Below, one piece after another: positions 16,207 through 36,988 of a stretch of 61,796 nt of DNA. A program made the translations under genes and the position numbers. The notes beneath the pieces are model-generated. The model had not been told where the DNA came from. It did no database searches and saw nothing but the letters and a program-made list of their open reading frames with translations. This DNA is from Candidatus Omnitrophota bacterium (lineage in GTDB: Bacteria; Omnitrophota; Gorgyraeia; Duberdicusellales; 4484-171): the NCBI GenBank assembly GCA_003154195.1, contig PMCS01000015.1, positions 1-61,796 on the forward strand, written 5' to 3'. Every line of letters begins with the position of its first letter. Position 1 is the first letter of the stretch.

Positions 16207-16225
16207 ACCCTACCGATGGCAGAAA

Positions 16226-16382: not shown

Positions 16383-17111
16383 ATGCCAAAAAAACACCTG
16401 GTCGTTTTAATGCTCGGCCTCTTAGCCTTCATTCATGCCGATTTTGCCCTGGCGACGTCGCAAAAGCAGCAAGAGGCGGCAAAAAAGTGGCAAGAGCTTC
16501 CTTACGTGGGAAATTTTAGTTATACGCCCCCCGCCCAAGAAACACCTGCCGCGGCGGGAGTAACTTTTGCGATTGTAGACCTTTATCAAACCGAGGGCTT
16601 TGCGCCCTGGCTTGCCTGGCCGCAATTTGCCGATTTCAATGCGGCGTTAAAACGGGATTTAACCAAAATTTTTGAGGCAAAGGGCCTTAGCGTGCGCGGC
16701 TCTTTTGATTCTTACGAGTTAATTCCGTTCCAGGATAAAAAGATGAGCGACATGTACGTAATTCCCGTGTTGGAATTATGGGGCACCCCGGGAAAAGATT
16801 TTGAATATACGGTCAGTGGAAAATTCACTATCGTGTTGAAAGAGATCATCACCGGCGAGCTGATGTGGTCGAAAGTCATTCCCTTATCCGGCTTTAGCGC
16901 GCAACATCTGGGTACTTTTCGTCCTAAGGAAAAAGGCAACTTTGACACTATCTCGGATTTTCTGAACACCGGGAATAGAAATGATGTGGTTAAGGGGATT
17001 GAGAAACAGTATCCTGACTTCATGGCTACCATGGCCAAGTTAATCGACGCGGAGGAAATGGGGATAATCAAAAAGCAGTGCCGGGAGATCAGGAGTAAAA
17101 AGGGGTACTAG
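16383..17111 (+). CDS. Secreted hypothetical protein
   Basis: GGAGG RBS; N-terminal signal peptide. Confidence 0.8.
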   Translation: MPKKHLVVLMLGLLAFIHADFALATSQKQQEAAKKWQELPYVGNFSYTPPAQETPAAAGVTFAIVDLYQTEGFAPWLAWPQFADFNAALKRDLTKIFEAKGLSVRGSFDSYELIPFQDKKMSDMYVIPVLELWGTPGKDFEYTVSGKFTIVLKEIITGELMWSKVIPLSGFSAQHLGTFRPKEKGNFDTISDFLNTGNRNDVVKGIEKQYPDFMATMAKLIDAEEMGIIKKQCREIRSKKGY

Positions 17112-17194
17112 TAAACCCTAGTTAGAGAACAAAGCTCTCTAACGGGGTGAGAGGAAACCATGTTCCCGGAATTCCAAGAAAAGGGGAGAAAAAA

Positions 17195-17587
17195 ATGAAA
17201 AAAGCGTTAGTCATCGCGTTGGTCTGCCTGGCTGCATCGCCGCCATGGTTTATCTCCAAGGTTATGGCGCAGAATAAACCGGTTAATTCTCTTAAGGGCG
17301 GCGCGGCAACATCTTTAAACAACCCCGGCAATGGTTTAGACAAACTGCGGGCAGAAGACGCAAGGCTGATCGAGGAAATAAACAGCCTCAACCGGGAATT
17401 AACCCAGTTGATGGCCCAAAAGAAGCCTGACCAAAAAAAGATAAAGGTTTGCCAGGAAAAACTGATGGCTGACCAGATGAAGCTTCAGCAAAATATGCAG
17501 AACGAAAGTGAGTTGATGAAGACAATGCAAAAAATGATGAAGGCAGAGTCGGATACGCGGAATAAAATAATAAATAATATGCGGTAG
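17195..17587 (+). CDS. Secreted coiled-coil hypothetical protein
   Basis: GGAG RBS; MKKALVIALVCL signal peptide; helical Q/M-rich body. Confidence 0.75.
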   Translation: MKKALVIALVCLAASPPWFISKVMAQNKPVNSLKGGAATSLNNPGNGLDKLRAEDARLIEEINSLNRELTQLMAQKKPDQKKIKVCQEKLMADQMKLQQNMQNESELMKTMQKMMKAESDTRNKIINNMR

Positions 17588-17710
17588 GGGGAGGACGTGG
17601 AGCCTCCCCGAAGGGGACAGAGAAAAAAGTAAAGAGGGCGGAAATAATCAGGTACGCACCCCCGGAATTTTAACCGCCCAAAATACCGGGGATAAATCAA
17701 GGAGGTTAAG

Positions 17711-17848
17711 ATGCTCAAGTATCGATTTGCTTTCTCTTTAATCGCATTAGTTATGTTATTCGGCATTTTAAGCGGGTGCGACAATCGAACCGGCTTTGAA
17801 AAAGGCGTTGACAAGACTGCAGATAAGATTAAGGACATCGCTAAATAA
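17711..17848 (+). CDS. Small lipoprotein (45 aa), not in the ORF track
   Basis: GGAGG RBS; MLKYRFAFSLIALVMLFGILSG|CDNRTGFEKGVDKTADKIKDIAK with lipobox LSGC. Confidence 0.75.
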   Translation: MLKYRFAFSLIALVMLFGILSGCDNRTGFEKGVDKTADKIKDIAK

Positions 17849-17967
17849 TTCAGGTTTTTTATCACGAAGCGAAAGTCACTTTGCGTTCCCGGAATTGCCT
17901 TGTCACAAAAAGTATATATTTGTTGTGGCAAAGCAATTCCGGGCTTATATCTTTCAGGCAGGCAAAT

Positions 17968-18618
17968 ATGAAAAAATTAATTGCGGCAGGAATTTTGATT
18001 TTGTTTTGCGCGGGGGTTGCGGCCGGCCTTTCATGCTCGCAGGGCACCAGCGCCAAAACGACCAATGCGATGACGGCCGGCAAGCCGGAACTAAATTTAA
18101 AATTGGCCATGCGAAAACTCTGGGAAGAGCACATCGCGTATACGCGAAACTATATTACCAGTGCCCTGGCAAATACCGAAGACACCGCCACGATTGCCCA
18201 AAGGCTGCTCAGCAACCAGAATGATATCGGAAATGCCCTGAAAACATATTATGGAGACGCGGCAGGAAAGAGATTAACCGCGTTACTGCGCCAGCACGTC
18301 TCGATTATCATCGAAATAATGAAAGTAGCCAGTATAAACAATAACGAAAGCCTAAACAAAGCCAACAAAAGATGGCACGCGAATGCGCAGGAAATTGCTG
18401 TTTTCTTAAACGAAGTCAACCCGAACTGGCCCACAAAAAACATGGCTGAAATCCTGCATGAACACCTTAACCTTACCGCGGGACAAATTGTATCAAGGCT
18501 CAAAAAAGACTGGATAGCCGATATCGGCTGTTACGACCGGGGCCATGACCATATTATCATGCTTGCCGACACCCTCACTGACGGCATCATAAAACAATTC
18601 CCCGATAAATTTAAATAA
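17968..18618 (+). CDS. Exported conserved helical protein with conserved His residues (LWEEH..YTR family)
   Basis: Signal peptide; MRKLWEEHIAYTR, LLRQH, LHEHL motifs. Confidence 0.75.
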   Translation: MKKLIAAGILILFCAGVAAGLSCSQGTSAKTTNAMTAGKPELNLKLAMRKLWEEHIAYTRNYITSALANTEDTATIAQRLLSNQNDIGNALKTYYGDAAGKRLTALLRQHVSIIIEIMKVASINNNESLNKANKRWHANAQEIAVFLNEVNPNWPTKNMAEILHEHLNLTAGQIVSRLKKDWIADIGCYDRGHDHIIMLADTLTDGIIKQFPDKFK

Positions 18619-18902
18619 TGAACCGCTCAAAAACCGGGGATTCAGGTGCGATTTTGGCGGCGCGAACGCATAAGACCAATAATCCCGCAGATTTTGGCCA
18701 AAAACCCAAAAAATACCCCTTTTTTCCGCCATTCTGCACCATTTGGTGTATTTACCCCGTTAGAAATTACGGTTATTCAAGATAACCTATTTCTAACGGG
18801 GTTTACTTTTCCTCAAAATGTGATATAAGGGAAGCTCCGGCAATAAAAGGTAGGATAAAGCCTATAAATTGAGGGAAAAGATCAATAGGGGAGGTGTAAG
18901 AT

Positions 18903-19451
18903 ATGAAAAAGATACTTCGCGCATTGGTTGCTGTAGCGTTTTCCAGTTCTTTGTGTTTCATGCCGCATGTCTTAGCAGAAACTTCACCCCAAGCAACAGC
19001 CCAAAAAGCTTCCGGGACCATAGGAGAAAAACGCGAACACCATGGGCGCTATTCTCAAGGACAGGATGGAGGCGATGAATTACGCAAGGAAATCGAATCA
19101 TTAGAGCAAAAACTTAAAATGTTATATTCGCAAATCGAACCGATTGAAGCTCAAACTAAACCATTGCGTTTACAGATTAAAGAACAGCTTGAACCCCAGA
19201 TTAAACCCTTACGGCAAAAGATCGAAGAAATCGAGGCCCAGGCTAAACCAATACGCTTACAGATCGCGCAAATCGAGGCCCAGGCTAAACCGATACGTTT
19301 ACAGATCGAACAGATCGAGGCGCAGGCTAAACCGCTTAGAGACCAGGTTCGCTTGATAAATGACGAAATAAAAGTAAAAAGAGACAAGCTCAGGCTTTTA
19401 CGCGATAAATCCGAGGGGCATCGCGAACAACCTCAGGGGCAACGTCAATAA
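18903..19451 (+). CDS. Secreted coiled-coil protein with 14-aa tandem repeats
   Basis: GGAGG RBS; repeats of IEAQAKPIRLQIxQ (about 42-nt units at ~19130-19345). Confidence 0.85.
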   Translation: MKKILRALVAVAFSSSLCFMPHVLAETSPQATAQKASGTIGEKREHHGRYSQGQDGGDELRKEIESLEQKLKMLYSQIEPIEAQTKPLRLQIKEQLEPQIKPLRQKIEEIEAQAKPIRLQIAQIEAQAKPIRLQIEQIEAQAKPLRDQVRLINDEIKVKRDKLRLLRDKSEGHREQPQGQRQ

Positions 19452-19476
19452 GCGTTGGTATGAAAATAACGATGAC

Positions 19477-19542
19477 GCAGCAGCCAACGGCTATATCGAA
19501 ACTGCCAATTTGTTAAAGCAAGCTGCGGCTAAAACGAAATGA
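19477..19542 (+). pseudogene. Orphan 3' end of an ankyrin gene
   Basis: Reads AAANGYIETANLLKQAAAKTK*, matching the LLKQAGA C-termini of the three ankyrin genes. Confidence 0.6.
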
Positions 19543-19577
19543 TTAAATATTTCTGACCCTGTTAAACGGAGGAAAAA

Positions 19578-20045
19578 ATGAAGAAAATATTTATTGTTGC
19601 AGTGGTGGTTGGTTTTGTTGTTCTTACCTTCGGGCCGGCCAAGCGCGCGATGGCGCAGCTTAGCGCTGGAGTGTCGAGGGTAGACTTTTGGGCCATGCTG
19701 GGCGGTGCGGACGATCCCGTGGCAAAAAAAGCATTCACGGAATTGATAAATAACGGCGTCAACTCCCAGGAAGCAAAAAGTATCGTCGACCAGGCCATAA
19801 AAGAAGCGAAAGCCCAGAAGCTGACCGGTAAAGCCCTGGAAGCAAAGCTTGATGGTGTAGTCAAGGCACGATTGGCGATAGTTAATAACCAAGCTATGGC
19901 GGTGCAAAATGCTAAAATGAGCGAGGCTAATTTTAAAAAACTGCAGGACAAGATACAGATGAATCAGCAAGCGATGCAGAAAAATAAAATAGAAACGGCA
20001 AAAAGAATCAATGCGAATATCACAGCGGCAGTAACGGGCAATTGA
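19578..20045 (+). CDS. Secreted hypothetical protein
   Basis: GGAGG RBS; signal peptide ending AMA|Q. Confidence 0.8.
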   Translation: MKKIFIVAVVVGFVVLTFGPAKRAMAQLSAGVSRVDFWAMLGGADDPVAKKAFTELINNGVNSQEAKSIVDQAIKEAKAQKLTGKALEAKLDGVVKARLAIVNNQAMAVQNAKMSEANFKKLQDKIQMNQQAMQKNKIETAKRINANITAAVTGN

Positions 20046-20074
20046 CAAGAAGTATAAAACAGCTAAAAAAATTG

Positions 20075-20240
20075 AAGCTCCACCGGCTTACACCGGTGGA
20101 ATCTTGTTGTTAGCTTCGGCGAAGCGCCCGCAGCGGCGAGGTCTTGTCTCGGCGCCGCCAGGGCGGCGCTGGACGGAAAAACCTCGCCGAAGCGAAATTA
20201 CCCACCCTCACAAGTGGGGAATTCCGCGAAGGCGGGTTAA
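20075..20240. repeat. Multi-hairpin element, possibly an IS200/IS605-derived MITE
   Basis: Hairpins ccaccggcttacaccggtgg and cttcggcga...tcgccgaag; ends in gcgaaggcgggttaa. Confidence 0.45.
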
Positions 20241-20339
20241 GAATAAAAGATGATGATTCATGGCTGTTGGTTTTGCCTGTGACTTTGCGATATGCTGTCT
20301 TTGTGACTTTTAAAGACCTGCAAAAAAAGGAGAAGACTT

Positions 20340-21068
20340 ATGTTACGTTCAGGAAATCCCGCACTGCGCAACGATGCTTTTATCAGTACGCGCGCCGCTT
20401 CCGGCGAAAACGCGATGACCATCCAGGGCACGGCCAATAAAGCCCTGATCCTTTTAGGGGTGGCCGCGATTGCCTTTGCCTGGGCATGGAGCCGGCCGTC
20501 AATGGGGCTGACCCTGCTTTTACCGGCATTGATCTTAGGTTTCATCGCTTCGCTGGTAACGATTTTTAAAAAAGAATGGGCTCCGGTAAGCGCGCCGATA
20601 TACGCGATACTGGAAGGAGTGGTCTTAGGCGCAATATCGATGGTTTTCGAACGAAGCTATCCGGGGATAGCCAAACAAGCCATTTTGCTTACCTTTGGAG
20701 TATTATTCAGCCTGTTAGCCGTCTATAAATCCGGCCTGATAAAACCCACGCAAAATTTTAAACTCGGCGTTTTTGCCGCTACCGGCGGTATCGGTATTTT
20801 TTACCTGGTCAGCATGATTGCCGGGTTCTTCGGCGTACATTTTTCCATTCTTTACGGCAACGGCCCGCTGGCAATCGGCTTCAGCGTAGTCGTCGTCATC
20901 ATCGCCGCACTCAACCTGGTGATGGATTTTGATTTCATCGAACAGGGAGCCGAACAGGGCGCGCCGAAATATATGGAATGGTACGGCGCCTTCAGCCTCA
21001 TGGTCACCCTGGTATGGCTGTATATGGAAATATTGCGGCTGTTGAGCAAGTTGCAATCCAGGCGTTAA
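20340..21068 (+). CDS. Bax inhibitor-1/YccA family membrane protein
   Basis: MLRSGNPAL, MTIQGTANK, YAILEG, NLVMDFDFIEQG..GAPKYMEWYGAF, TLVWLYMEILRLLS. Confidence 0.92.
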   Translation: MLRSGNPALRNDAFISTRAASGENAMTIQGTANKALILLGVAAIAFAWAWSRPSMGLTLLLPALILGFIASLVTIFKKEWAPVSAPIYAILEGVVLGAISMVFERSYPGIAKQAILLTFGVLFSLLAVYKSGLIKPTQNFKLGVFAATGGIGIFYLVSMIAGFFGVHFSILYGNGPLAIGFSVVVVIIAALNLVMDFDFIEQGAEQGAPKYMEWYGAFSLMVTLVWLYMEILRLLSKLQSRR

Positions 21069-21210
21069 AAGAAGTATAAAGTAGCGAGTAGCTAGTAGCC
21101 AGTAAAGATATAAAAAAAGCAGGAGGCAGCGAGTAGAAAGTAGCTAGTAGAAGATGGAAAATAATTTTCACCACAGAGAACACAGAGCCCACGGAGAAAA
21201 ACAAGATAAG

Positions 21211-21250
21211 AAAGGGGCGGGGATATAAGTTGAGTGTCCCCGGAAATTCC
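21211..21250 (+). repeat. Representative copy of the cassette-boundary motif AAGGGGCGGGGA-N-TGTCCCCGGAATT
   Basis: Related copies at 14104, 17631, 21677, 23381, 24495, 26223, 26311, 26400, 28700, 29403; inverted copies at 27799 and 31880. Confidence 0.8.
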
Positions 21251-21273
21251 GGAAATTCAAAGGAGGTGTAGCA

Positions 21274-21627
21274 ATGGTTATCTGGTTAATCAATTATTGG
21301 CTTTGGCTGGCAATTCCGTTAAGCATGTTTTGGGGAATTTATGGGTGTAAAACAATAAGAGAAGATATTGAAGTAGAAAAAGAGGCCGAAAAGAAAACAA
21401 GAAAGATGTATTTTACAAAACGAATCGGAATTTTTATCTCTGAGTTTATAGGTTCGTTCGCCGGGTGGTGCTGTTTATATATTCTTGTCGTCCGGTTATT
21501 CAGGTTTCCTAAGCTCGACTTTTCGGCGTTTGGCGGCACGGAAATATTTTTGACAATCGCAGCGGTTATAGGGATAGCGGGATATTCGTACGAGTTAACC
21601 AGGTTGACAAAGGAGTGGAAAAAATAA
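21274..21627 (+). CDS. Small membrane hypothetical protein
   Basis: AGGAGG RBS; three hydrophobic segments. Confidence 0.75.
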   Translation: MVIWLINYWLWLAIPLSMFWGIYGCKTIREDIEVEKEAEKKTRKMYFTKRIGIFISEFIGSFAGWCCLYILVVRLFRFPKLDFSAFGGTEIFLTIAAVIGIAGYSYELTRLTKEWKK

Positions 21628-21795
21628 TTAAATTAGACTGCGAGAGCAACAATCCAAAAAAGAAACATAAAAAGATAAAGGGGCGGGGATGATCAGGTCC
21701 CCGTAATTCAGAGCGTAAAAATTTTAAAGAAAAATAACATATAAATAAGTTACTGAAAAAGAGGCGGGGGATTAAGTATCATACCCCCCATTTGA

Positions 21796-22833
21796 ATGAA
21801 AAATTTTCCATCGCAGATAATTATCTACAAAACCGATGACGGACAGACAAGACTGGAAGTCCGTCTTGAACACGAAAGCCTTTGGCTGACCCAGGCGGCA
21901 ATGGCTGAATTATTTCAGACTACCATAGCGAATATCAATATTCACATCAAAAGTATTTACGCCGAAGGCGAATTGGGATCAAAGGGAACTATTAAGGAAA
22001 ACTTAATAGTTCGAAAAGAAGGCGCGCGCGAAGTTAAGCGTTCAGTTTTGTTCTATAGCTTGCCGGTTATAATCGCAGTCGGCTACAGGGTTAATTCAAA
22101 ACGCGGTACGCAATTCCGGCAGTGGGCTACCCAGCGGCTCAACGAATATCTGGTCAAAGGCTTTGCTATCGACGATGAACGCCTTAAGCAAGGCGCTAAT
22201 GTCGGTTCCGACTATTTTGACGAGATGCTGGAGCGGGTACGGGACATTCGCTCCAGTGAAAAAAGATTCTATCAAAAAATAAGAGATATTTATAAACTTG
22301 CCGTAGACTACGACCCCGAAGCCGAAGAAACTCTGGAATTTTTTAAGATTGTCCAGAATAAACTGCACTTTGCCGTATCCGGGAAGACCGCGGCAGAGCT
22401 GATCGCCCAACGCGCCGACGCTTCCCAACCCAACATGGGGCTTACTTCATGGAAAGGCGGTAAGGTCCGGCCGCCGGACGTGACCGTAGCGAAAAATTAC
22501 CTCAACAAGGATGAATTGGATCAACTAAACCGGATTGTAGCGATGTACCTTGATTACGCCGAAGACCAGGCGCGGCGGCATCGGCAGATTTTTATGCGCG
22601 GTTGGCGCGAGAAACTCGACGCGTTTTTAAAATTCAACCAGCGGGATATCCTGAAAAACGCCGGAAAAGTAGAAAAAGAAGTAGCGGATAGGATTGCCAT
22701 GGAACAATATGATATTCTCAACCAACACCGCCTGCAAAAAGAAGCCGAAGCGGAAGCAATCGACGATGACCGGGCATTAAAACAACTTGAACAAAAAACC
22801 GCCAAATTATCCGGTAAAAAAAAGAAAAAATGA
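21796..22833 (+). CDS. RhuM-family (virulence RhuM) DNA-binding protein
   Basis: WLTQAAMAELFQ, IIAVGYRVNSKRGTQFRQWAT, RDIRSSEKRFYQK, QNKLHFA, VAKNYL. Confidence 0.93.
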   Translation: MKNFPSQIIIYKTDDGQTRLEVRLEHESLWLTQAAMAELFQTTIANINIHIKSIYAEGELGSKGTIKENLIVRKEGAREVKRSVLFYSLPVIIAVGYRVNSKRGTQFRQWATQRLNEYLVKGFAIDDERLKQGANVGSDYFDEMLERVRDIRSSEKRFYQKIRDIYKLAVDYDPEAEETLEFFKIVQNKLHFAVSGKTAAELIAQRADASQPNMGLTSWKGGKVRPPDVTVAKNYLNKDELDQLNRIVAMYLDYAEDQARRHRQIFMRGWREKLDAFLKFNQRDILKNAGKVEKEVADRIAMEQYDILNQHRLQKEAEAEAIDDDRALKQLEQKTAKLSGKKKKK

Positions 22834-23047
22834 AGCACCAATGTTCTCCCCGCGGCAAAACCGCGGGGTATCTAGCTTCATTTCTCCGAAGCCAAAGATT
22901 ATAGCCTTCAATCCCTGTGGCAAGACCACAGGGTATTCGGCGAAGGAGAATAGTAAAATTGTTTGACCGTTTTGTTGGCGTCAACAAAACGATACCTAAA
23001 TATTGACCGTAACAAATTCAGAGAGATTGGGTAAGATAGAAGTGAAG

Positions 23048-23227
23048 ATGACAAAATACAGTCCGAAATCCCAGAAAATTATCGGAGAAGCCATGCGCAA
23101 ATATAAACATGGCAAATTAAAAAGTGGCAGCAGCGGAAAAACTGTGAAGAGCAGGAAACAGGCCATCGCCATCGGGATATCCGAGGCCCGGCAAGAAGGG
23201 AATAAAACCCCCGGGAAAGAGCAATAA
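23048..23227 (+). CDS. Small basic protein (DUF6496-like)
   Basis: KHGKLKSGSSGKTVKSRKQAIAIGISEAR. Confidence 0.8.
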   Translation: MTKYSPKSQKIIGEAMRKYKHGKLKSGSSGKTVKSRKQAIAIGISEARQEGNKTPGKEQ

Positions 23228-23300
23228 TAAAGAAATATTCTCACCAGTGCGTAGCCTCCCCGAAGGGGACAGAGGGCACGGAGAAATACCGAAAGATGAA

Positions 23301-23367
23301 GTCCGCCAATTTGGTAAACAAATTGGCGAGACCCCGCCATTTGCCGTTTTATCGCAAATGGCGGGGA
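23301..23367. repeat. Double-hairpin element (intergenic copy)
   Basis: gtccgccaatttg..caaattggcg-agacc-cgccat...atggcgggga; in-frame copies at 37907-37965 and 43451-43509. Confidence 0.9.
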
Positions 23368-23427
23368 TGATGGATGCGGGAAGAGAGAAGAGGGACGTTG
23401 TATGTCCCGGAACTCCAGGGAAAAAAT

Positions 23428-23808
23428 ATGTTTAGCGTAGAAATAAGCGATAACGGGAATAAATTAGTTATTATTTTTGGAGGCCTTGTTGATCTCCCAC
23501 AAGCGGAACAATTTTATGCAAAAATCCAGGAGGCCGCTCCCAGGCTGAAGAAAGGTTTTATTTTATTAACCGACCTGTCTTCGTTAGAGCGGATGGACGT
23601 AAACGCAAAATCCTTTATTGAAAAAGTAATGGATTTATTAAACCAGAGCGGAATCTCGAGGGTTGTAAGAATTATTCCCGACCCGGAAAAGGATATAGGA
23701 TTTAATATAATGAGCCTGTTCCATTATTCCGCCCGGGTAACCGTACATACTTATGAGTCTTATCCGGAAGCAGAAAAATATTCACAGTTGCAGGGGTACC
23801 GATTATAA
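23428..23808 (+). CDS. Hypothetical protein (possibly STAS/SEC14-like fold)
   Basis: 126-aa ORF; GFILLTDLSSL and GISRVVRII motifs. Confidence 0.7.
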   Translation: MFSVEISDNGNKLVIIFGGLVDLPQAEQFYAKIQEAAPRLKKGFILLTDLSSLERMDVNAKSFIEKVMDLLNQSGISRVVRIIPDPEKDIGFNIMSLFHYSARVTVHTYESYPEAEKYSQLQGYRL

Positions 23809-23919
23809 TTAATTATTCCGCAAGGTGCCGCATTAGAAGCTTTAGATCTACCGTCTACTGTAGTAGTGTAAAGGGGAAATGGCGTTGATCCCTTTTCTCC
23901 GATGCGAGTTTAAGTAACC

Positions 23920-24429
23920 ATGAAAACAGTAAAGTATTTCACAGGAATAATGCTTCTGGTGATTTTAGGCATGAGCCTTTGTTCCTGCTTAGCCCCAGTT
24001 CCTGTTGATGTGGTGATGATGGGCGATGAATTGTTCTTTGTGCTGGAAGAGCCGCATGAGATCAGCGGTATATGGGTGACTGCGTTCAATCCCAATACAA
24101 GGAAAAAGCCTAAGCCAATGTGGGGCCTTGGCCACGACCTTACAACCGCGGTAAAAGACAGGAAATATCCGAGGCTGAAACAGATAAAATATGGGCAGAA
24201 GTTTGAGGAGTTTACCGAGGCAACAGGGCCACTTAAATTGCAGAGAAATATGGAATATTTAGTAGGAATCGACATGGGGGGTAAATTCGCAAGAGAAACA
24301 TTTATTATTACAAATGACAATAAAGCGGTTATGCCTAAGCCTGGGTTTCTACGCCAGAATGGCCGCGTTTATTCAGTTTCGGTTGATAAGAATGGCAATG
24401 AAACACTTATTCTTAAGCCAAAAACATAA
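23920..24429 (+). CDS. Putative lipoprotein
   Basis: Lipobox LCSC. Confidence 0.75.
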   Translation: MKTVKYFTGIMLLVILGMSLCSCLAPVPVDVVMMGDELFFVLEEPHEISGIWVTAFNPNTRKKPKPMWGLGHDLTTAVKDRKYPRLKQIKYGQKFEEFTEATGPLKLQRNMEYLVGIDMGGKFARETFIITNDNKAVMPKPGFLRQNGRVYSVSVDKNGNETLILKPKT

Positions 24430-24549
24430 GTGACATAATAACATACTAAGCAGATAGGCGAAGATTAAAAAATGGGTAAGCGGGGAAGCCGAAAGAGAAG
24501 GGACAGGATAATCAAGTACGTGTCCCCGGAATTCTAAAAAGGAGGATTT

Positions 24550-24945: not shown

Positions 24946-24958
24946 AGGAGATATTAGT

Positions 24959-28505: not shown

Positions 28506-28700
28506 TTGGCGGCGCTTTTATTGTTGCTTGCCGCTATGGTTTTATATTTATTCGGGATTGCCTGGTTTCTGCGCCAAGCCTTTCGGATGTTACGGGCCAA
28601 AAAGTATTTTCACGCTTTACTTTGTATTTTAGCGGCGGTTTTGGTATTTATGGCCGGCAGATTCGCGCCGGCGCTTTTTAGGATCCACCCCCAAGGGTAA
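28506..28700 (+). CDS. Small membrane protein, possibly a 5'-truncated fragment
   Basis: Two hydrophobic helices; ends HPQG* directly before a boundary motif. Confidence 0.5.
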   Translation: MAALLLLLAAMVLYLFGIAWFLRQAFRMLRAKKYFHALLCILAAVLVFMAGRFAPALFRIHPQG

Positions 28701-28738
28701 AAAAGGCGGGGAGTTATGGTAGCTGTCCCCCGAATTCC

Positions 28739-29349
28739 TTGTCAGGAGTCCTGCTGCAATATTTTGGAGTATTAAAAAGCTATTTGCGGGATAACGATAG
28801 CGAATTTAAAAATAATGTTATCAAATGCGTTAATGGGTTTGCTATAGGAAAAAGCAAAAGAATGAATTGGGTTTTTGATGATGCGTTGTTATTTTTAAGC
28901 TCAGAAAAAAACACTATCAGGAAAAATATATTACAAGAATTTATTAGTTTTCTTAATGGGGAAAAAGATAGAAATGAATGTGTGGAAAAGATAACAGGGT
29001 CAATTGCTTATTAATCAAATGCAACAAGAAAAGCTGAGCAGTATCTTTTATATTTGTTGCGCAACTAATTATATTGCAAATAGTTAAATAGAACGTCTTG
29101 TGTCCTTTTTCGATAAACACAATAAAGGCTGTTTTTGGAGCTCAGATTTCAAAAGATATTACCGAGATAAAACCCGATCAAAAAGTTGAATCCCAAATCA
29201 AGGTAAATGTGAAAAATAATTCCAGAAAAATAGCCAAACAAATGACTCTTGAAGAGATAAAAAATACGGACTTATATGACTTTCTGATTAAGATAAAAAC
29301 GGTCTTGGATAATTCTGGCAAGCTAAAAAGCCCAAGCATCAAATCTTGA
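28739..29349 (+). pseudogene. AT-rich gene fragments (28739-29014, 29098-29349), probably one disrupted gene
   Basis: Begins abruptly at a boundary motif with no RBS; two consecutive short ORFs. Confidence 0.35.
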
Positions 29350-29462
29350 TCAGGCTTTGCCGAAGGGATTGGGTAAGATAGAAGTGAAGACGGAAGAAGA
29401 ATAAAAGGAGCGGGGAAAGAAAAAGGTGTTCCCTTTTTCCTTTTTACAAGAAGGAAGACGAT

Positions 29463-30257
29463 ATGATGAGATACGTTCTGTTTATTATTCTTTTATTATT
29501 GACAATCGCTAGTGTGTACTTTATTTGGGTAATGGCAAAAGATTTCTCTAGTAGAGTTCAATTTATTATTTCTTTTTTAACCCTTGTTTCTGTATTTTCT
29601 GCTGGTATTTTCACTTATTTTAAATATGAAGATTATAGAAGAGAAGGTAATTATCAAAAGGTCATTGTTCGTTATTTAGATAACAATATTGATGTTTCAA
29701 ATTCTGAAATGTCTCATTATATTATGAAGGTATGTACAATTTTAATGCTATATTGCGACGATAAATGTAATATCGGGGATATAGGACAAAGAGAAAAAAC
29801 TTATACCTCATGCGTTCAAGATGCACAAGATCTCACCGCCTCTTTAATTAGATTATCTGTTTTTGACGCATCCATCCATTTGAGTTATTCAAATGTATTT
29901 ACTACGGCAAGAGCTGTGTTGCGACTTATGCTTGATGAAAGTATGACCAAAAAATTTGTTGAAAATAAATGGAACCTAATCGAGCCTTTTTACCAATTTG
30001 CAACGTATAATTTACAAGATATCGGTGAATTAATTAGAAGAGACACGGCAATATATGATTCTCCAAATATAGAAGTTATAAAAAAGAGTAAAGAATTTAA
30101 AAAGATAATAGAGAGATTCAAAAAATTTAATAATTTATTCGATGAAGGGAAAGCCTTAAATGATAACGACAAACTCGCCAAACTTTTATATTATGTCAGA
30201 GATTATTTGAAAGATAAAGGCCTGCCCACTGAGGTAAAAGAAGTAAGCGCTCAATAG
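29463..30257 (+). CDS. AT-rich membrane-anchored hypothetical protein
   Basis: 264-aa ORF with two N-terminal TM helices; low GC. Confidence 0.75.
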   Translation: MMRYVLFIILLLLTIASVYFIWVMAKDFSSRVQFIISFLTLVSVFSAGIFTYFKYEDYRREGNYQKVIVRYLDNNIDVSNSEMSHYIMKVCTILMLYCDDKCNIGDIGQREKTYTSCVQDAQDLTASLIRLSVFDASIHLSYSNVFTTARAVLRLMLDESMTKKFVENKWNLIEPFYQFATYNLQDIGELIRRDTAIYDSPNIEVIKKSKEFKKIIERFKKFNNLFDEGKALNDNDKLAKLLYYVRDYLKDKGLPTEVKEVSAQ

Positions 30258-30326
30258 GGGCAAATTGATTTATAAAATATTAGTAATACATAAGTTAGAT
30301 AGGGCGTATTGTCATTTGAGGGAAAA

Positions 30327-31274
30327 ATGAGCAAGCATAGGAATCGATTATTATTCTCGCTATTGCTGGCAGCGCAGGTTTTTATAGCCGGTTTTCTATG
30401 TTATGTCTTCAAGCAGGTTTTTGATAACCTGCGGCATGCAAACTTGGCGATGGAAATGATTTTGTTCTTAAATTGCGATCGGTTGCCCCCGGGCATGGCT
30501 AGTTATAAAGCAGACCGAGGGAAAAAACTGGTTCAATATTTTGATGAGCAAGGTTTATTGCGCCAGGAACGATTTTTAGATAAAAACAATACTTTAGTTT
30601 TCAGGACTTATGATGGAAAAAAGAACATCACGGAAGAAAAAAGAATCCCTCTAAAACTATTGATTAATAACTTCGGTCCAGATTCCCAATATGCCAAAAA
30701 ATTAAAAGCGGAGGAGAAAAAACGAGATGAAGAATTGATACAGAATATCAATAACAGGATAAAAGAAGGGAAAGACCTTAATACCATAACTGCAGATAGT
30801 GCTACGCTTTTAGATTCGGCGGCGCGTACCAACAATATCGAAGCCGCAAAGCTTCTGATTGGGGCCGGAGCCGATGTTGACGCGCGCATTAATAACGGGC
30901 CGACTCCGCTAATGAATGCTTTGGGGCATGATGATATGGTTAAGTTTCTGATTGACGCTAAAGCCGACGTAAATTTTAAATCTTTTTATACCGACATTAC
31001 CCCTTTAATGGAAGCCGCCGCGCGCGACAAGGCCAATGAAGTTAAGATGCTGCTTGATGCCGGAGCCGATGTAAACACCAAAGCTTACGATGGAGGCACG
31101 GCTTTAATCCGCGCCTGTTATATGGGAAAAACCGACACAATAAAGTTTTTAATTGATGCCGGAGCCGATGCCAGCGCTGCATATAATGATGGCCAAACTG
31201 CGTTAATGGTCGCGATTGGTAATAAAAACACCGTTGCTATAAAATTATTAAAGCAAGCCGGCGCTAATCGATAA
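30327..31274 (+). CDS. Membrane-anchored ankyrin-repeat protein
   Basis: N-terminal TM helix; TPLM-A..GADVN repeats; ends LLKQAGANR. Confidence 0.88.
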   Translation: MSKHRNRLLFSLLLAAQVFIAGFLCYVFKQVFDNLRHANLAMEMILFLNCDRLPPGMASYKADRGKKLVQYFDEQGLLRQERFLDKNNTLVFRTYDGKKNITEEKRIPLKLLINNFGPDSQYAKKLKAEEKKRDEELIQNINNRIKEGKDLNTITADSATLLDSAARTNNIEAAKLLIGAGADVDARINNGPTPLMNALGHDDMVKFLIDAKADVNFKSFYTDITPLMEAAARDKANEVKMLLDAGADVNTKAYDGGTALIRACYMGKTDTIKFLIDAGADASAAYNDGQTALMVAIGNKNTVAIKLLKQAGANR

Positions 31275-31359
31275 CCGCGGTATTACTTAGAATGTTTGGG
31301 CCAGGCCTTAAAAAGACAAAGGGGTCAGCGCCCTTTGATCTTTAAAACAGGAGATAAAA

Positions 31360-31851
31360 ATGACCAGGCTGCTTAAACTAATTTTACCATTCTTGTTTTT
31401 GGTTATATGCATACCTTTTACCCGCGCCGAAAATCAAAAGGATAACGTCTGGATAGCGTATTCGCATAACAGCGTCGGCTGGAGCTGGGAGCAGACTGAA
31501 ATAACCATAACAACCGGAGGGTGGTATCAATATAGCTTAGGCTATCCCAAAGAAATAAAACAAGAGGAATATAGAATAATCCCCCGCGAATTTTCCCGGC
31601 AGCTTAGCCCGGAAGAAATCACTAAAATCAAAGAATATTTAGGGAAACTTAACATGAATATTACCAGCAAAGATGTAAACATGGACTGCATGGATGGCTC
31701 AACGTCATCTCTCAGGTTTACCTTAAATGGGGTGGAAAAAAGTATTGGCGGAAGCTGTTGCGCCTGGCCGAAAGAATATGGCGAGCTTATAAGTTTTATC
31801 GATCGGCTAGGCTCTGATTGGAGAATAATGGGGTCAGCCCTTGAAACTTGA
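31360..31851 (+). CDS. Secreted hypothetical protein
   Basis: AGGAG RBS; signal peptide ending TRA|E. Confidence 0.8.
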   Translation: MTRLLKLILPFLFLVICIPFTRAENQKDNVWIAYSHNSVGWSWEQTEITITTGGWYQYSLGYPKEIKQEEYRIIPREFSRQLSPEEITKIKEYLGKLNMNITSKDVNMDCMDGSTSSLRFTLNGVEKSIGGSCCAWPKEYGELISFIDRLGSDWRIMGSALET

Positions 31852-32014
31852 GTTAGTTATTTTTTCTCCGTGCCCTCTGGAAGTTCCGGGGACACGATAC
31901 CTAACTATTTTATATTAAATTTTCCATTCGTGTTATTCGTCCCCAAGGGGAGGCTACGCTTCACTTCGCACTGTGATTCGTTGTTAAAGATATTTTGCTT
32001 CTCTTCGTGCCCTG

Positions 32015-32065
32015 GGCTATACCGAAATCGCCCGCTTGCTGAAGCAGGCGGGGGCCAAGGAATGA
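32015..32065 (+). pseudogene. Orphan copy of the 3' end of ankyrin gene 35206..36213
   Basis: GYTEIARLLKQAGAKE*, amino-acid identical to 36163-36213. Confidence 0.85.
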
Positions 32066-32118
32066 ACGCTTAGGCACGAAACTAAGCATAAAGGAAACAA
32101 CACCGGGAGGATCTGGCC

Positions 32119-33195
32119 ATGAAAAAAATACTTTTTGCCTTAATTGCTATAGCCGCTATCGGTCTTTTTTATTCTTTTCAACTGCCGTCAGTGAGAGCCG
32201 ATGAAGCCAGGACATTTATCGGCACGATCAAATCTTTCCGGCCGGTTATGGGCCGGCCGTCAAAGTGGTATTGCGCCAGGTTTACCGCGGTTGCCGATAA
32301 CGGCGAGAAAAAAGAAATCTGGATATTAGGCGCTTCCGGAGCCGCTCCGACTTCGGTCACGAATTTTGACGGTAAGCCGGTGGACAAACTGGGATACAAT
32401 CACCGGCCACAAGTAGGTAAAAAAGTCGAAGTTAAATACACAATTGCAGAAAACGGCCGCAATGACGCGGTTTCAATTCGTTATGTCACCGCGGATTATG
32501 TCCCGGCGCCAGCAGCACCAGCCGGCAGCCAGGCCGCTGACGTCCCCTCCGAGCCGAAAAATCTTATTACCGGCCGGATCAACGAGGTTTGGCCGGGCGT
32601 GCCGCGCTCGCTGAAAGTCAAAGATTGCAAGATCCGGGTCATCCCGGACAGCGGTAAAGACGCCTATTTCGAAACCAAAGATGCCCTGATCAGCGATACA
32701 AACGGCACTGCCCTTGCCTGCGATTCGTCAAACCTCAAAAATGAAAGAGTAGAGGTGATCTATTCGGAAGCCGACGGTTCGATTTACGATCCCTATAAAC
32801 CGGCTAAAGCGGTTGCCATACATTATCTTGCCGGGAACAGCGTAAGCAGCCCGACGTCTTCGACGACTGCCGCTCCCGCGGCCGCGAATAATATCTTTGT
32901 AGGGAAAGTCGTAAAAGGCGGGATCACGTTCAACCCGCGCTGTCCTTACTGGTTCGTGATCATGACCGACAACGGCGAGAAGAAAGATCTCTGGATACCC
33001 AGGGATAATATGCGCGTTACCGGTCTTAACGGCAGCCAGGTATACGGCGCGCCTCCCCGGGAAGGTAAAAAAATTGAAGTCCAGTATTCCGTCGGCGACC
33101 ATGGCCAATATGAGACGGTTTCGATGCGTTATGTCCCCGAGAACTACGTATCCCAGCCCGGCGCGGCCCCGGCAAAGAAGATAGAGAGAAGATAG
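32119..33195 (+). CDS. Secreted protein with three repeated beta (OB-like) domains
   Basis: GGAGG RBS; signal peptide; DNGEKK..W and GKKVEVxY units recur. Confidence 0.85.
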   Translation: MKKILFALIAIAAIGLFYSFQLPSVRADEARTFIGTIKSFRPVMGRPSKWYCARFTAVADNGEKKEIWILGASGAAPTSVTNFDGKPVDKLGYNHRPQVGKKVEVKYTIAENGRNDAVSIRYVTADYVPAPAAPAGSQAADVPSEPKNLITGRINEVWPGVPRSLKVKDCKIRVIPDSGKDAYFETKDALISDTNGTALACDSSNLKNERVEVIYSEADGSIYDPYKPAKAVAIHYLAGNSVSSPTSSTTAAPAAANNIFVGKVVKGGITFNPRCPYWFVIMTDNGEKKDLWIPRDNMRVTGLNGSQVYGAPPREGKKIEVQYSVGDHGQYETVSMRYVPENYVSQPGAAPAKKIERR

Positions 33196-33414
33196 AGGGG
33201 TCAGGCCTCAAGAATCAAGATTGATCATCTCTCATCTGTGAAAATCTGTGTAATCTGTGGACAATATTTTTTCGTTGTTTTCTCCGTACCCTCCGTCCTT
33301 CCAGGAGGCTCCGCCCGGCTTTGCCAGGCTCCGCACTGTCCTCTGTGGTGAAAATTTTTCCTTCGTAGTCCAGCCAGCCTTGATTTTTACCCCCCGGAAT
33401 GATATACTTTGTTC

Positions 33415-33591
33415 ATGAAAGAGTCAAAAATAATGAATGCGATCAAAGAAGAGATGCGGGATGACCAGAGGAAGATGACTCCCCAGGAACGTCTCCGGGC
33501 TTTCGTGAACCATTCCCGCTTGATGGTGCAGTTGTCGGAAGCCGGGGAAAGATACCGCCGGCGCTTTAAACCCCGCAGGAACGCAAAATGA
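33415..33591 (+). CDS. Small protein, putative antitoxin partner
   Basis: KMTPQERL motif; ATGA-coupled to the downstream NTase gene. Confidence 0.65.
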   Translation: MKESKIMNAIKEEMRDDQRKMTPQERLRAFVNHSRLMVQLSEAGERYRRRFKPRRNAK

Positions 33592-34148
33592 GAGCTAAAA
33601 ACAGCGGCCAATCGGCGTTACTCCTTCTCGATGTTATCGACTTACTCTCGGAAAAGAAAATACCTTACGCGATCATCGGAGCGCTTGCCGCTTCTTTTTA
33701 CGGCACGGTCAGGGCCAGCGTTGATGCCGACGCGATTATTTCTCTTGCAACATCGCCTCTTAGCGCCGGGGATTTAGCCCATCTTTTATCCCAAAGCGGC
33801 ATGCCGGCAGGATACCGCCGGGGCGACGGCGACGATCCCCTTCAGGGCGTAATCAGCGTTAAGGACAAATACGGCAACCGGGTAGATTTAATAACCGGCA
33901 TCAAAGGCATGGATGATAACGCCTTTAATCGTACCGCCGTAACTTCTTTCCTGAAACATAAAATCTGCCTCATCGGCGTAGAAGATTTTATCGCAATGAA
34001 GCTATTCGCCGGCAGTACCAAGGACATTGCCGATGCCCGCGCCGCCATAGATATTTCCCGCCCGCGCATTAATACAAGCCTGTTGAGAGAAATAGTTCAA
34101 AAATACGGGAAAAGGACTTCCCATCTGCTTGATTCCTTGCTTAAGTGA
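33588..34148 (+). CDS. Nucleotidyltransferase-fold protein (DUF6036/AbiEii-like), putative toxin
   Basis: YAIIGALAASFYG..RASVDAD; EDFIAMKLFAGSTKDIAD. Confidence 0.8.
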   Translation: MRAKNSGQSALLLLDVIDLLSEKKIPYAIIGALAASFYGTVRASVDADAIISLATSPLSAGDLAHLLSQSGMPAGYRRGDGDDPLQGVISVKDKYGNRVDLITGIKGMDDNAFNRTAVTSFLKHKICLIGVEDFIAMKLFAGSTKDIADARAAIDISRPRINTSLLREIVQKYGKRTSHLLDSLLK

Positions 34149-34518
34149 AATGTTAAAAAACCAGAAAGGGAAACACATTTATTTTTTCTCCGTGCCTTCT
34201 GGTAAAAATATTTTCCCTTTCTTGTTTTCTTCGTAGACTTCGTCCCCTGCGATGAGGCTACGCTTCGCTCCGCACTGTTCTTCGTGGTAGGCATAGGTTT
34301 TATTTTTATATCATTCTCTGTAAAAATCTGTGAAATCTGTGGACAATATTTTTTTATTTTTCCTTTGCGTCCTTCGCGGGAAAATCTCCCTCCCAAAATA
34401 CCCCCCGACATTTATTCATATTCTTCGTGAACTTCCTACCCTTCGTGGTAAAATATTCCTGTTTTTCTCTGCGGTGAATTTTTTTATAAAAAGGGAGAAG
34501 GAGCCTTTTTAAAAATAT

Positions 34519-35106
34519 ATGACCGAAAAACTAAAAGAAATATCCATAATCATCGATGTCTGGGATGATGTTTTTTCCGATTTTGACCCCCGGCCGCTGG
34601 ATGAAAGAGCCTTATCGGAAGATTTTATCAGCGAGCTCAAAAAACGATACCGGGAGACTCCCCGGGGAGACCTTTTGATATCTTTTTATGCTCCCAGAAC
34701 CCTGAAGCATGAAGACTCGGAACGAATGGTTACCCAAAGGCTTAAGCAATATTTTGGCGACCGGGCATTACAAAAGAAACAGGAATTATTCCGCACCAGG
34801 AAAAAGGGCGGCGGGTTTGTCCTGGGAGGAATATTTTTCTTAACTTCCATCACGCTTCTGGCTTATTTTAATATTTTCCCGGTACTCATGATTAAGATCC
34901 TGGAAATAGTACTGGTGCCGCTGGGCTGGTTCGGCATCTGGGAAGGTTTTTCGAAAATCGTCAACGCGTCTCCCGGCAGTTCCCAGGAAGGAATACTTTT
35001 CCGCAAGCTTTCAAAAGCAGAATACCGGTTTAATTATGCGAAGAACCCCGGCGGCGGAGTGAGAGGAAACAGCGAGCAGCCAGAAAGACCGATGGATGAA
35101 GGATGA
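34519..35106 (+). CDS. Conserved membrane hypothetical protein
   Basis: DDVFSDFDPRPLDERALSEDF motif; two TM helices; GWFGIWEG. Confidence 0.8.
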   Translation: MTEKLKEISIIIDVWDDVFSDFDPRPLDERALSEDFISELKKRYRETPRGDLLISFYAPRTLKHEDSERMVTQRLKQYFGDRALQKKQELFRTRKKGGGFVLGGIFFLTSITLLAYFNIFPVLMIKILEIVLVPLGWFGIWEGFSKIVNASPGSSQEGILFRKLSKAEYRFNYAKNPGGGVRGNSEQPERPMDEG

Positions 35107-35205
35107 AGGACGAGAGATGAGGGGTAAGGGAAGTCGAAAGCAGCGAAAAATACCGAAAGATGAGGGAAGATAGATGAGAAATGAAGTTGAAAATAAAGAT
35201 TAAAA

Positions 35206-36213
35206 ATGAAAAACAAAAAAATAAAAGGTGGGATTGTGTTATTCATGATGTTGGTTCCGGCGGTCGCTTTCGCGCAGGATTTGAACCGGGAACCGGCTGA
35301 GACAGGAAAAAAAGGCCATACGGAAACCGTATCGGCCATGAAGGCTAAAGGCACCGATGCTAACGCGAAAAATAACGGCGGCGTAACCGCGCTGATGATG
35401 GCCGCATTTACCGGAACTGTCGAAAACGTAAAGACTTTACTGGCCCGGGGCGAGGAAATCAATAAAAAAGATAACTACGGCCGGACTGCCCTGATGTGGG
35501 CAGCAAAGACCGGATATACCCCAATCGTCACGCTCTTGCTGGCCCGGGACGCCGATGCCAACGCCAGGACTATCGCCGGGCGGAGCGCTTTAGTCGAGGC
35601 CGCGGAGAACGGGTATACCGAGATCGTCACCGCCCTGGCGGCCAAAGGCGGCGACGCCAATGAAAAAACCGACAGCGGCGTAACAATCCTGATGAGAGCG
35701 GCGCAGGGAGGACACACGAAAACAGTCAGCGCCTTATTATCCCTGGGCGCTGATGCCAACGCGAAAGATATCAACGATACAACCGCCTTGATGCGGGCAG
35801 CAAGAAGCCGGCACGCCGATACCGTCGCCGCCTTACTGGCCCATGGCGCCGATGCCAACGCGAAAGATAAAACCGGCAAGACCGCCCTTATCTGGGCGGC
35901 AAACGAACCGGGGCAATGCTTCCCGGGAGCGAAAAAAAACGGCGTGGTTACCGATGACAGTGTTACGGCCGCCTCAACCGTCAGGGCCTTGTTGGACAAA
36001 GGCGCCGATGTCAACGCGAAAGATAACCATGGATTGACCGCCTTGATGTCAGCAACGCGGGCACGGAACACCCTGATGATCAATGCTTTGCTATCCCGGG
36101 AAGCGGAAGTCAACGCTAAAACTAAAGACGGCAAAACCGCCTTGAAGCTGGCAATACATAAGGGATATACCGAAATCGCCCGTTTGCTGAAGCAGGCGGG
36201 AGCGAAGGAGTGA
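35206..36213 (+). CDS. Secreted ankyrin-repeat protein
   Basis: Signal peptide AFA|QDLN, like 9780; about 9 ankyrin repeats. Confidence 0.92.
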   Translation: MKNKKIKGGIVLFMMLVPAVAFAQDLNREPAETGKKGHTETVSAMKAKGTDANAKNNGGVTALMMAAFTGTVENVKTLLARGEEINKKDNYGRTALMWAAKTGYTPIVTLLLARDADANARTIAGRSALVEAAENGYTEIVTALAAKGGDANEKTDSGVTILMRAAQGGHTKTVSALLSLGADANAKDINDTTALMRAARSRHADTVAALLAHGADANAKDKTGKTALIWAANEPGQCFPGAKKNGVVTDDSVTAASTVRALLDKGADVNAKDNHGLTALMSATRARNTLMINALLSREAEVNAKTKDGKTALKLAIHKGYTEIARLLKQAGAKE

Positions 36214-36544
36214 GGGACGAGGGATGAAAGATGATGGGCGAAGGATGAGAGAAACGGTAAAGAGTGAAAACATCGGTTGTATTTGTAACGATAGAAGATA
36301 ATGAACCTCCCTGCAGCAAGCTGCAGGGTATCAAATATCTATAAGGTAACCCTGGATAAGGTACAACCCTGCGGCAAGCCGCAGGTAATAAAATCTGGTT
36401 CGCCGTAACCGGCGAAACTTGATTTTATTATGCGGCTAATCGTTTTTCTGCGCCTACGGCTTGAAAAACTCAAGCCTTAGTAATAAAAACCCGTAAAGAC
36501 GGTAAGCAGGATAAAAGAGGATAATTAAAAACGAGGGTGGGACG

Positions 36545-36988
36545 ATGAAAAAAATACTTTTTGCCTTAATTGCTGTAGCCGCTATCGGTCTTTTTTGTTC
36601 TTTTCAACTGCCGTCAGCGAAAGCCGATGAAGCCAGGACATTTATCGGCACGATCAAATCTTTCCGGCCGGTTATGAGCCGTCCGCCCAAGTGGCCATGC
36701 GCGCGGTTTACCGCGGTTTCTGATAGCGGAGAGGAAATAGAGATTTATGTATTAGGCGGCTCCAGTACCTCTCCGACTTCGGCCACGGATTTCGACGGCA
36801 AGCCGATGGATAAACCGGGGTATTGTCACCGTCCCCAGGTAGGCAAAAAAGTAGAAGTCACCTATTCTACCGGAGAACATGAGATTTACGGAGGCCAGCG
36901 CGCGCAGGTGCAATATCCGACGATCACCAACGGCAACATCATCACCAATGGACAGCTGGGGGCGGATTCGATACGGCTGTTGGATTAG
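36545..36988 (+). CDS. Short or truncated paralog of 32119..33195
   Basis: First ~105 aa highly similar to 32119..33195, then divergent. Confidence 0.8.
   Translation: MKKILFALIAVAAIGLFCSFQLPSAKADEARTFIGTIKSFRPVMSRPPKWPCARFTAVSDSGEEIEIYVLGGSSTSPTSATDFDGKPMDKPGYCHRPQVGKKVEVTYSTGEHEIYGGQRAQVQYPTITNGNIITNGQLGADSIRLLD

Follow-up and report, generated by a model that had tools for sequence, protein, structure and literature searches.

A motif recurring in a small-gene array of an uncultured Omnitrophota bacterium probably belongs to a transposase-associated extragenic repeat family rather than marking integron-type cassettes

Contig C33 of the Candidatus Omnitrophota bacterium assembly GCA_003154195.1 (GenBank PMCS01000015.1; the assembly, here G000, comprises 2.48 Mb in 34 contigs) was analysed over its entire length of 61,796 nucleotides, referred to below as the 62-kb window. 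Between positions 16383 and 36988 the window carries an array of 30 short open reading frames (ORFs), all on the + strand and encoding products of 45-384 amino acids, among which a short motif recurs. A first-pass annotation described this stretch as an integron-like array of captured gene cassettes, with the motif as a hairpin-forming recombination site used in trans, possibly by an enzyme of the HUH/RAYT type (RAYT, REP-associated tyrosine transposase; REP, repetitive extragenic palindromic sequence). Here we describe the motif as a member of an extragenic repeat family that accompanies a Y1 transposase gene in three genera, and summarise what this means for the cassette interpretation.

The nearest relatives of the BipA protein encoded just upstream of the array (14254-16092) are from Candidatus Omnitrophota, at 92% identity (a partial match) and then 76%, with other phyla at about 50%. 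A search of public runs for near-identical words found the stretch 20300-30250, whole or in part, in 20 peat or permafrost metagenome runs from 16 studies, and the DNA may itself stem from one of them. Most array products are predicted membrane proteins, exported proteins or lipoproteins: according to a crude heuristic, 21 of the 30 ORFs encode a hydrophobic N-terminal segment, with a lipobox in at least four of these. The GC content of the ORFs runs from 0.30 to 0.56, compared with 0.43-0.48 for the contigs of the genome. To this extent the earlier picture of about 30 short, co-oriented genes of mixed composition is accurate. The co-orientation is not peculiar to the array, because all long ORFs of the 62-kb window lie on the + strand, with a GC skew that climbs throughout, and because other contigs are also strongly biased (+ strand crude ORFs number 18 of 237 in C22 and 151 of 162 in C8). 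Pfam names a minority of the products, namely two ankyrin-repeat proteins, BaxI_1, a RhuM family protein, DUF6496, a BamE-like domain and DUF4136 with PDZ.

Within the array lies a three-gene lipoprotein operon (24550-25947, + strand) that encodes a BamE-like protein followed by two paralogous lipoproteins of 185 and 144 amino acids with no Pfam family. The order of these genes is kept in all 44 Omnitrophota-like metagenome loci of at least 5 kb, so that the operon looks like a core envelope module; a further array gene is present in only one of the 44 (L143). A low-GC block at 28103-30257 consists of ORFs of GC 0.30-0.33, with one ORF of GC 0.48 among them. No Pfam family is matched at its gathering score by any ORF of the block, which suggests a recent foreign origin. 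The array spacers are unusually long and are mosaics that include other dispersed repeat families with many copies in the genome (21158-21204, 22817-22952, 23290-23376 and 33234-33280) and relic 3' ends of a gene family encoding 54 amino acids (26292-26310 and 29350-29403). A partial-duplicate mosaic is seen at 26106-26341, 28686-28738 and 29350-29432, where relics of the 54-amino acid family (ending GKIEVKTEE, then a stop) adjoin copies of the motif; intact paralogues of this gene family are present on C22, C34 and C5.

The recurrence of the motif is well beyond that of shuffled sequence. Within the window its 5' half (AAGGGGCGGGGA, at most one mismatch) matches five times where 0.43 matches would be expected, and its 3' half (TGTCCCCGGAATT, at most two mismatches) 15 times where the expectation is 2.19, counts that none of 100 shuffles reached. 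A second motif noted at the same time (GGGGTCAG) has 6 matches against 0.96 expected, five of them at or near the places first given for it. The individual sites fared less evenly: of the 13 listed in the first-pass annotation, nine carry a recognisable 3' half (14104, 21211, 21677, 24495, 26223, 26400, 28700 and, inverted, 27799 and 31880) whilst four are degenerate (17631, 23381, 26311 and 29403). Two copies, at 17161 and 17884, were not on that list.

The copies differ considerably in quality. A weak + strand copy with an exact 3' half lies upstream of bipA (14120-14135; nhmmer E 0.19), and a 3' half with one mismatch lies 18 nt before the ATG at 17192 (17161-17173, + strand). The degenerate + strand copy at 17629-17669 (GGTACGCACCCCCGGAATT) is assigned to repeat family D13. 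At 21192-21248 (+ strand) a copy with a G-rich 5' half is followed by a tandem CCGGAAATT repeat and lies 26 nt before the ATG at 21274; it is 86% identical to a second + strand copy with a G-rich 5' half and a GGTACG core at 26381-26438 (E 1.2e-4). Between these are a short degenerate copy at 21678-21708 (GGGGCGGGGA...GGTCCCCGTAATT, + strand), a copy that has a GGGACA/TGTCCC stem and precedes the ATG of the lipoprotein operon by 16 nt (24493-24535, + strand; E 3e-4) and a full core copy (GTTATGGTAGCTGTCCCCCGAATT) at 26210-26262 (+ strand; E 1e-6). The last of these is repeated directly at 28686-28738 (+ strand; E 1.2e-6), with 92% identity over 53 nt, and the final 34 nt are identical (26229-26262 = 28705-28738), exactly as had been reported. 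Two copies are inverted: a weak one at 27798-27813 (- strand; E 0.38), 16 nt past the stop at 27784, and a core copy (AGGTATCGTGTCCCCGGAACT) at 31880-31908 (- strand; E 2.2e-4), 31 nt past the stop at 31851. Finally, at 29403-29439 (+ strand) a degenerate 5' half is preceded by the 54-amino acid family relic at 29350-29403 and followed by a terminator-like hairpin. The motif had been said often to follow a stop codon and precede the next gene, and for several copies this is so: those at 17161, 21235 and 24521 lie 16-26 nt ahead of an ATG and those at 27800, 28724 and 31882 lie 16-31 nt past a stop. Nevertheless, any copy at all is present at only about one third of the junctions among the ~30 array genes, and the motif is absent from the places where an integron-like model requires it.

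Across the genome, the conserved part of the motif is a core of about 24-37 nt. It begins with (GTCAAGGA)-ATTATGGTAGC, or AGTACG/AGTATCG, and continues with TGTCCCCGGAAYT, after which a tandem CCCGGAAYT copy often comes next. A 13-mer of the motif has 33 genome matches with at most one mismatch, of which 18 have the extended core, that is, ATTATGGTAGC or AGTACG/AGTATCG directly 5' of TGTCCCCGGAAYT. With an nhmmer profile built from these 18 copies, seven contigs hold 21 matches at E<=0.05; relaxing the threshold to E<=0.4 brings the number to 25, on seven to eight contigs. Almost all are intergenic (23 of 25, in a genome with 12.9% intergenic DNA under a crude ORF model). The tetranucleotide GTAG stands just 5' of TGTCCCC in 12 of the 18 core copies, with GTAC or GTAT in the other six. 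The hairpin that had been attributed to the motif in general is not conserved: with DNA folding parameters the mean z-score of the 25 copies is -0.08, and a stem of 6-7 bp is present only in copies that have a variable upstream arm (GGGGACA or the G-rich CGGGGA).

On other contigs the copies adjoin ordinary housekeeping genes, and so the motif is no private feature of the array. Their neighbours include genes for a class II dehydroquinase, an M24 peptidase with elongation factor P, an rRNA adenine dimethylase, PdxA, a QueF-like protein and a ketoacyl synthase with carrier protein, as well as some toxin-antitoxin genes; the gene for leucyl-tRNA synthetase is two genes away from one copy. An equal scatter of the motif among core genes had been named in advance as an outcome that would count against cassettes. 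Copies are indeed found among core genes, but not equally so, because the motif is enriched in the array, and the objection holds only in part. Six of the 25 copies lie in the array, against 0.38 expected from its 1.5% share of the intergenic DNA (binomial P 1.7e-6, for copies that are not independent of one another).

The position of several copies close to gene ends raises the question of whether the motif is chiefly a regulatory or RNA-level signal for envelope genes, either as the operator of a shared regulator or as a hairpin between cistrons by which mRNA ends or stability are determined. The copies at 17161, 17657, 21235 and 24521 lie 16-41 nt before starts, in the orientation of the gene and with Shine-Dalgarno-like sequence adjoining, some copies have the 6-7 bp G+C stem, and according to PMC3733652 most REPs are situated downstream of coding regions and are plausibly transcribed. 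The family as a whole fits this explanation poorly, however: its copies point either way, may be tandemly arranged, adjoin housekeeping genes unrelated to one another and surround a transposase gene (see below), with no conserved hairpin. Terminator-like matches in the window exceed those in shuffles (43 against 27.0) but fall away from the motif sites, with the single exception of the degenerate hairpin at 29419, and promoter-like matches are not in excess (36 against 33.3 in shuffles). At gathering thresholds Rfam has no match in the window, and ARAGORN finds no tRNA gene there. We consider a mainly regulatory role very unlikely.

A different association comes from the search for transposase genes. 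The first-pass annotation had proposed that the genome be searched for the motif and for RAYT/TnpA genes flanked by it, and such a gene exists. Five genes of G000 match Pfam Y1_Tnp and one of these, C7:40491-41156, encoding 221 amino acids, is flanked by the motif in inverted orientation: three - strand copies lie before it at 40289-40453 and one + strand copy begins 5 nt past its stop codon, the extended repeat at this end overlapping the last codons of the gene. Around the four other Y1_Tnp genes, inspection by eye revealed no obvious copy of either the motif or another repeat family. The C7 protein scores 39.8 bits against Y1_Tnp (cut-off 23), and its best and only NCBIfam match is REP_Tyr_transpos (NF047646, REP-associated tyrosine transposase; E 2.7e-14). 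Its only sequence match in the PDB is the Escherichia coli TnpA-REP protein (4ER8), with which an HVH (HUH-type) motif and the tyrosine of RYVERNP align at the HMH and Y regions, respectively. Upstream of the gene (C7:40289-40490; L099:1260-1461), the repeat is tandemly triplicated together with approximately the first 22 bases of the RAYT coding sequence, and hence there has been local duplication of the repeat together with flanking DNA.

The same arrangement is found in two related genera, and the guess of an HUH/RAYT-type enzyme has thus proved a good one. In G003 an orthologue that is 79% identical (contig C82) has the same repeat right past its stop codon, and its start is preceded at a distance of about 45 nt by an inverted copy. 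In G013 a 59% identical orthologue (contig C3) is bracketed, again in inverted orientation, by a variant repeat (AGTGTCGTGTCCCC...). With at most two mismatches, a 19-nt pattern of the repeat has 14 matches in G000, six in G003, three in G014 and one each in G006, G016 and G022, and none in the other 25 genomes; those outside G000 and G003, in four genomes, always have two mismatches. Motif-like copies are also seen on more distant Omnitrophota metagenome contigs.

The contigs of four peat or permafrost metagenome runs were compared with 16100-36099, leaving out uncovered bins in runs X3 and X6. At six motif sites (21677, 24495, 27799, 28700, 29403 and 31880) the reference gene order is kept in near-identical contigs, as difference-free contig pieces from runs of different studies. 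Run X4 supplies an exception, a 740-nt contig (depth 6.2) in which 28406-28704 runs on into 26229-26669 across the exact 34-nt repeat. The comparison across strains that had been suggested was made among near-identical contigs, with the order kept at six sites and one junction of this kind at the repeat. The junction 28704>26229 would arise if the 2,476-bp three-ORF segment between the two direct copies had been circularised or tandemly duplicated. It was seen in one of the four runs. Low-coverage k-mer assembly can mis-join at an exact repeat of about 34 nt, and the junction may be an assembly artefact of this kind. A number of other joints (16169>35467, 17619>33232, 21185>35158, 21200>24508, 23283>31947, 26029>29358 and others) have sides of at most 32 nt, were attributed to contigs from other copies of dispersed repeats or from paralogues and were set aside as evidence; those traced, for example 23283>31947 and 26029>29358, do match dispersed repeats or paralogues.

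Comparison with relatives yields little that bears on mobility. No close strain is present among the genomes searched, the relatives compared belonging to other genera. Apart from scattered repeat fragments, the matches in a DNA search of 30 related genomes, G000 and two more were confined to bipA, the lipoprotein operon and the BaxI-like and RhuM-like genes. At the level of protein synteny, no array gene is in place downstream of bipA in seven loci and in G003:C103; homologues were found out of place, one 13 kb away in G013 and one upstream in L002. The array stretch is consequently lineage-specific, which has no bearing on whether its genes behave as mobile cassettes. In a metagenome scan with the 185-amino acid lipoprotein no relative exceeded 82% identity, and strain-level insertions and deletions are for this reason beyond its reach. 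Two array genes have four paralogues elsewhere (on C31, C22, C34 and C5), in which the homology extends from the ribosome-binding site to the stop codon only, with no motif at the borders.

These observations can be set against a second alternative, in which gene-bearing segments bounded by direct copies of the repeat are excised, duplicated or shuffled, either by the Y1 transposase or through recombination between the copies, making the array a cassette-like variable region. The enrichment of the repeat in the array, the 34 identical nucleotides at either end of the 2,476-bp segment, the X4 junction and the lack of synteny in other genera would all fit such a scheme, as would the bracketing of an attC array by the motif elsewhere in the genome (see below). 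Yet the junction comes from one run in four and from contigs rather than reads, across a repeat of mis-join size, every other joint has sides no longer than 32 nt, and the normal junctions at six motif sites are present in other runs. Moreover, the paralogues elsewhere are not bounded by the motif, two thirds or so of the gene junctions lack it, and the relic ends at 26292-26310 and 29350-29403 represent breakpoints inside genes and not at the motif. Movement of array segments between repeat copies is very unlikely on this evidence, and no more credence can be given to its more specific form, in which direct RAYT-repeat copies serve as ends for excision or tandem duplication (26229-28704, for example) and a domesticated Y1 transposase helps to shuffle envelope-protein genes. 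Were it true, the genome would have, besides its classical integron, an analogue of cassette exchange that works on single strands and does not depend on hairpins; and if the 28704>26229 junction is real, the question of RAYT movement of host genes would become testable in public metagenome reads.

G000 does possess a classical integron. Of its three tyrosine recombinases (XerD-like on C22, XerC-like on C31 and IntI on C29), none is encoded on C33. The C29 protein (39721-41046, - strand, 441 amino acids) is an integron integrase, scoring 409 bits against TIGR02249 (cut-off 265). It heads a complete integron at C29:39721-44361 (L207:11722-16362), in which IntI is followed by five to six canonical attC sites and small + strand cassettes; the sites have GTTAGAC/GTTAGAA-type ends and long imperfect inverted arms. 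Arrays resembling CALINs (clusters of attC sites lacking integron-integrases) are found at C13:32665-37529 and C18:29695-32411. One C13 cassette (C13:32888-33463) encodes a Y1_Tnp-like protein, and copies of the RAYT-associated repeat stand on both sides of the C18 array (C18:28517, 32432 and 32477), the last ones 21 nt past an attC. An nhmmer attC profile, built from five of the C29 sites and representing this genome's own attC only, has 18 matches at E<=1, on C29, C13, C18, C27, C22 and C17, and none of the 18 is in C33. In a crude scan for R''/R' inverted repeats, true sites (three on C29 and one on C18) score 11-13, whereas C33 reaches at most 6, inside a giant gene, and the array at most 2.5, the sensitivity of the scan being limited because the C13 sites were missed. 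The motif itself lacks RYYYAAC/GTTRRRY ends. The absence of a recombinase gene and of attC sites from the window, as first reported, is therefore upheld. That the array might be a degenerate integron or CALIN serviced in trans by the C29 integrase, as the presence of that enzyme, the integrase-less attC arrays on C13 and C18 and the small, co-oriented genes of the window might suggest, is scarcely credible when the attC profile, the R''/R' scan and the ends of the motif all speak against it.

The cassette-capture array of the first-pass annotation is not supported by these results: copies of the motif are found at some junctions only and also among housekeeping genes, and paralogue borders are without it. 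The case is further weakened by the conservation of the three-gene operon as a unit, by the canonical attC sites of the real integron and by the unchanged gene order at six sites. Most probably the motif is a low-copy short extragenic repeat family of the REP/RAYT kind, and the array genes are neither integron-type cassettes nor recombined at the motif. The cognate enzyme would be the single-copy HUH/Y1 tyrosine transposase of C7, bracketed by inverted copies of the repeat. By analogy with its family, this protein may nick and rejoin single-stranded repeat copies, thereby seeding and spreading, or maintaining, those between genes. The array is probably a lineage-specific, fast-evolving run of small envelope and exported-protein genes, in whose spacers copies of this and several other repeat families appear to have accumulated and, to judge from their anatomy, to have been re-duplicated locally with flanking bits.

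Several points weigh against the REP/RAYT assignment. The C7 protein reaches 53.3 bits where the equivalog cut-off of NF047646 is 80, and so falls outside the curated RAYT equivalog. Flanks were read for three RAYT genes (on C7 of G000, C82 of G003 and C3 of G013), four of the six orthologue loci being left out. The copy number, at about 21-25, is far under the classical REP level: classical REPs typically exceed 100 copies, as described in part of PMC2817692, and sections of PMC3733652 describe many REP families with 20-100 units or fewer. The G-rich 5' half of the motif (AAGGGGCGGGGA) is largely specific to the window contig, which carries four of its six exact copies in the genome. The local enrichment of the repeat in the array is described here rather than explained. 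Lastly, with no conserved hairpin the palindromic part of the REP definition fails, and the family may be closer to a variant in which the RAYT gene is flanked by terminal inverted repeats (TIRs), a TIR-type RAYT repeat being perhaps the better description.

Taken together, the findings remove an apparent new gene-capture system and account for its motif by a known class of element, the transposase-associated extragenic repeat, and the organism's own integron provides a picture of a genuine cassette array for comparison. There is modest novelty in the combination, in an uncultured Omnitrophota bacterium, of a RAYT-type gene and a co-varying, non-palindromic, GTAG-tagged repeat. A literature search for RAYT together with Omnitrophota, outside of which supplementary files fell, gave a sole co-match, through the author name Raytselis.

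Other features of the window merit description in their own right. The array is flanked by two giant ORFs, at 1-9168 (over 3,005 amino acids) and 37136-46675 (3,179 amino acids), which have in common an N-terminal module of about 200 amino acids and a 53-amino acid C-terminal module (94% identical), with unrelated middles of about 2,700 amino acids. Pfam finds nothing in the first and only HD and HEAT in the second, and many Ala/Ser-Ser-Pro linker-like segments are discernible. A dispersed double-hairpin repeat with at least 15 copies in the genome occurs in frame in the second giant gene (37890-37981 and 43434-43525), which through it is 18 residues (QFVKQIGETSPSAGWRER) longer than the paralogue, and between genes at 23284-23375; the copies inside the giant gene may be comparable to the Rickettsia palindromic elements, which are likewise in frame. 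Each giant gene adjoins a gene for an ankyrin-repeat protein with a signal peptide (9780-10340 and 35206-36213). Multi-pass membrane proteins are encoded by a tandem pair at 10419-12056 and 12321-13781, about 80% alike in DNA, and two genes for exported proteins (32119-32432 and 36545-36858) have an 85%-identical 5' part in common. Strings related to GGACGAAGGATGAAGG recur both within and between genes.

How, then, does the system compare with those already known? With integron arrays and CALINs the stretch has in common its small co-oriented genes, a recurring site between them, a mixed composition and the lack of synteny in relatives. Unlike them, it has no attC structure, R''/R' boxes or nearby integrase, its site is absent from most junctions and occurs also between core genes and around a transposase gene, and a conserved multi-gene operon lies inside it.

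The likeness to REP/RAYT systems, such as E. coli TnpA-REP (4ER8) and the Pseudomonas REPIN/RAYT, is closer. As described in parts of PMC3733652 and PMC5581495, these too comprise a single-copy HUH/Y1 gene bracketed by inverted short repeats that are otherwise dispersed and intergenic, with a GTAG-type tetranucleotide next to a G+C-rich segment; the GTAG tag is described for RAYT-linked REPs in PMC3733652. Repeat and transposase co-vary between genera, and copies cluster and are reiterated with flanking bits, much as the large REP clusters treated in a section of PMC3733652 contain units reiterated together with flanking DNA. The Omnitrophota family differs in its phylum, in having no conserved palindrome and only some 21-25 copies, in a protein below the NCBIfam equivalog cut-off and in the placing of GTAG 5' of a non-palindromic, often tandem TGTCCCCGGAAYT box.

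The TIRtrons or TIRYT elements (Di Nocera et al. 2013, PMC3733652) offer a further parallel, drawn by description only. The repeat of G000 keeps a GTAG tag, which sections of that paper tie to REPs and not to TIRs. In the TIRtrons, as here, the inverted repeats on either side of a RAYT-like gene differ from classical REP stem-loops and make up a family of moderate abundance. According to the same source, some of the repeats beside TIR-flanked genes extend into the transposase gene, at either its 5' or its 3' end, and the extended repeat of C7 likewise runs into the last codons of its transposase gene.

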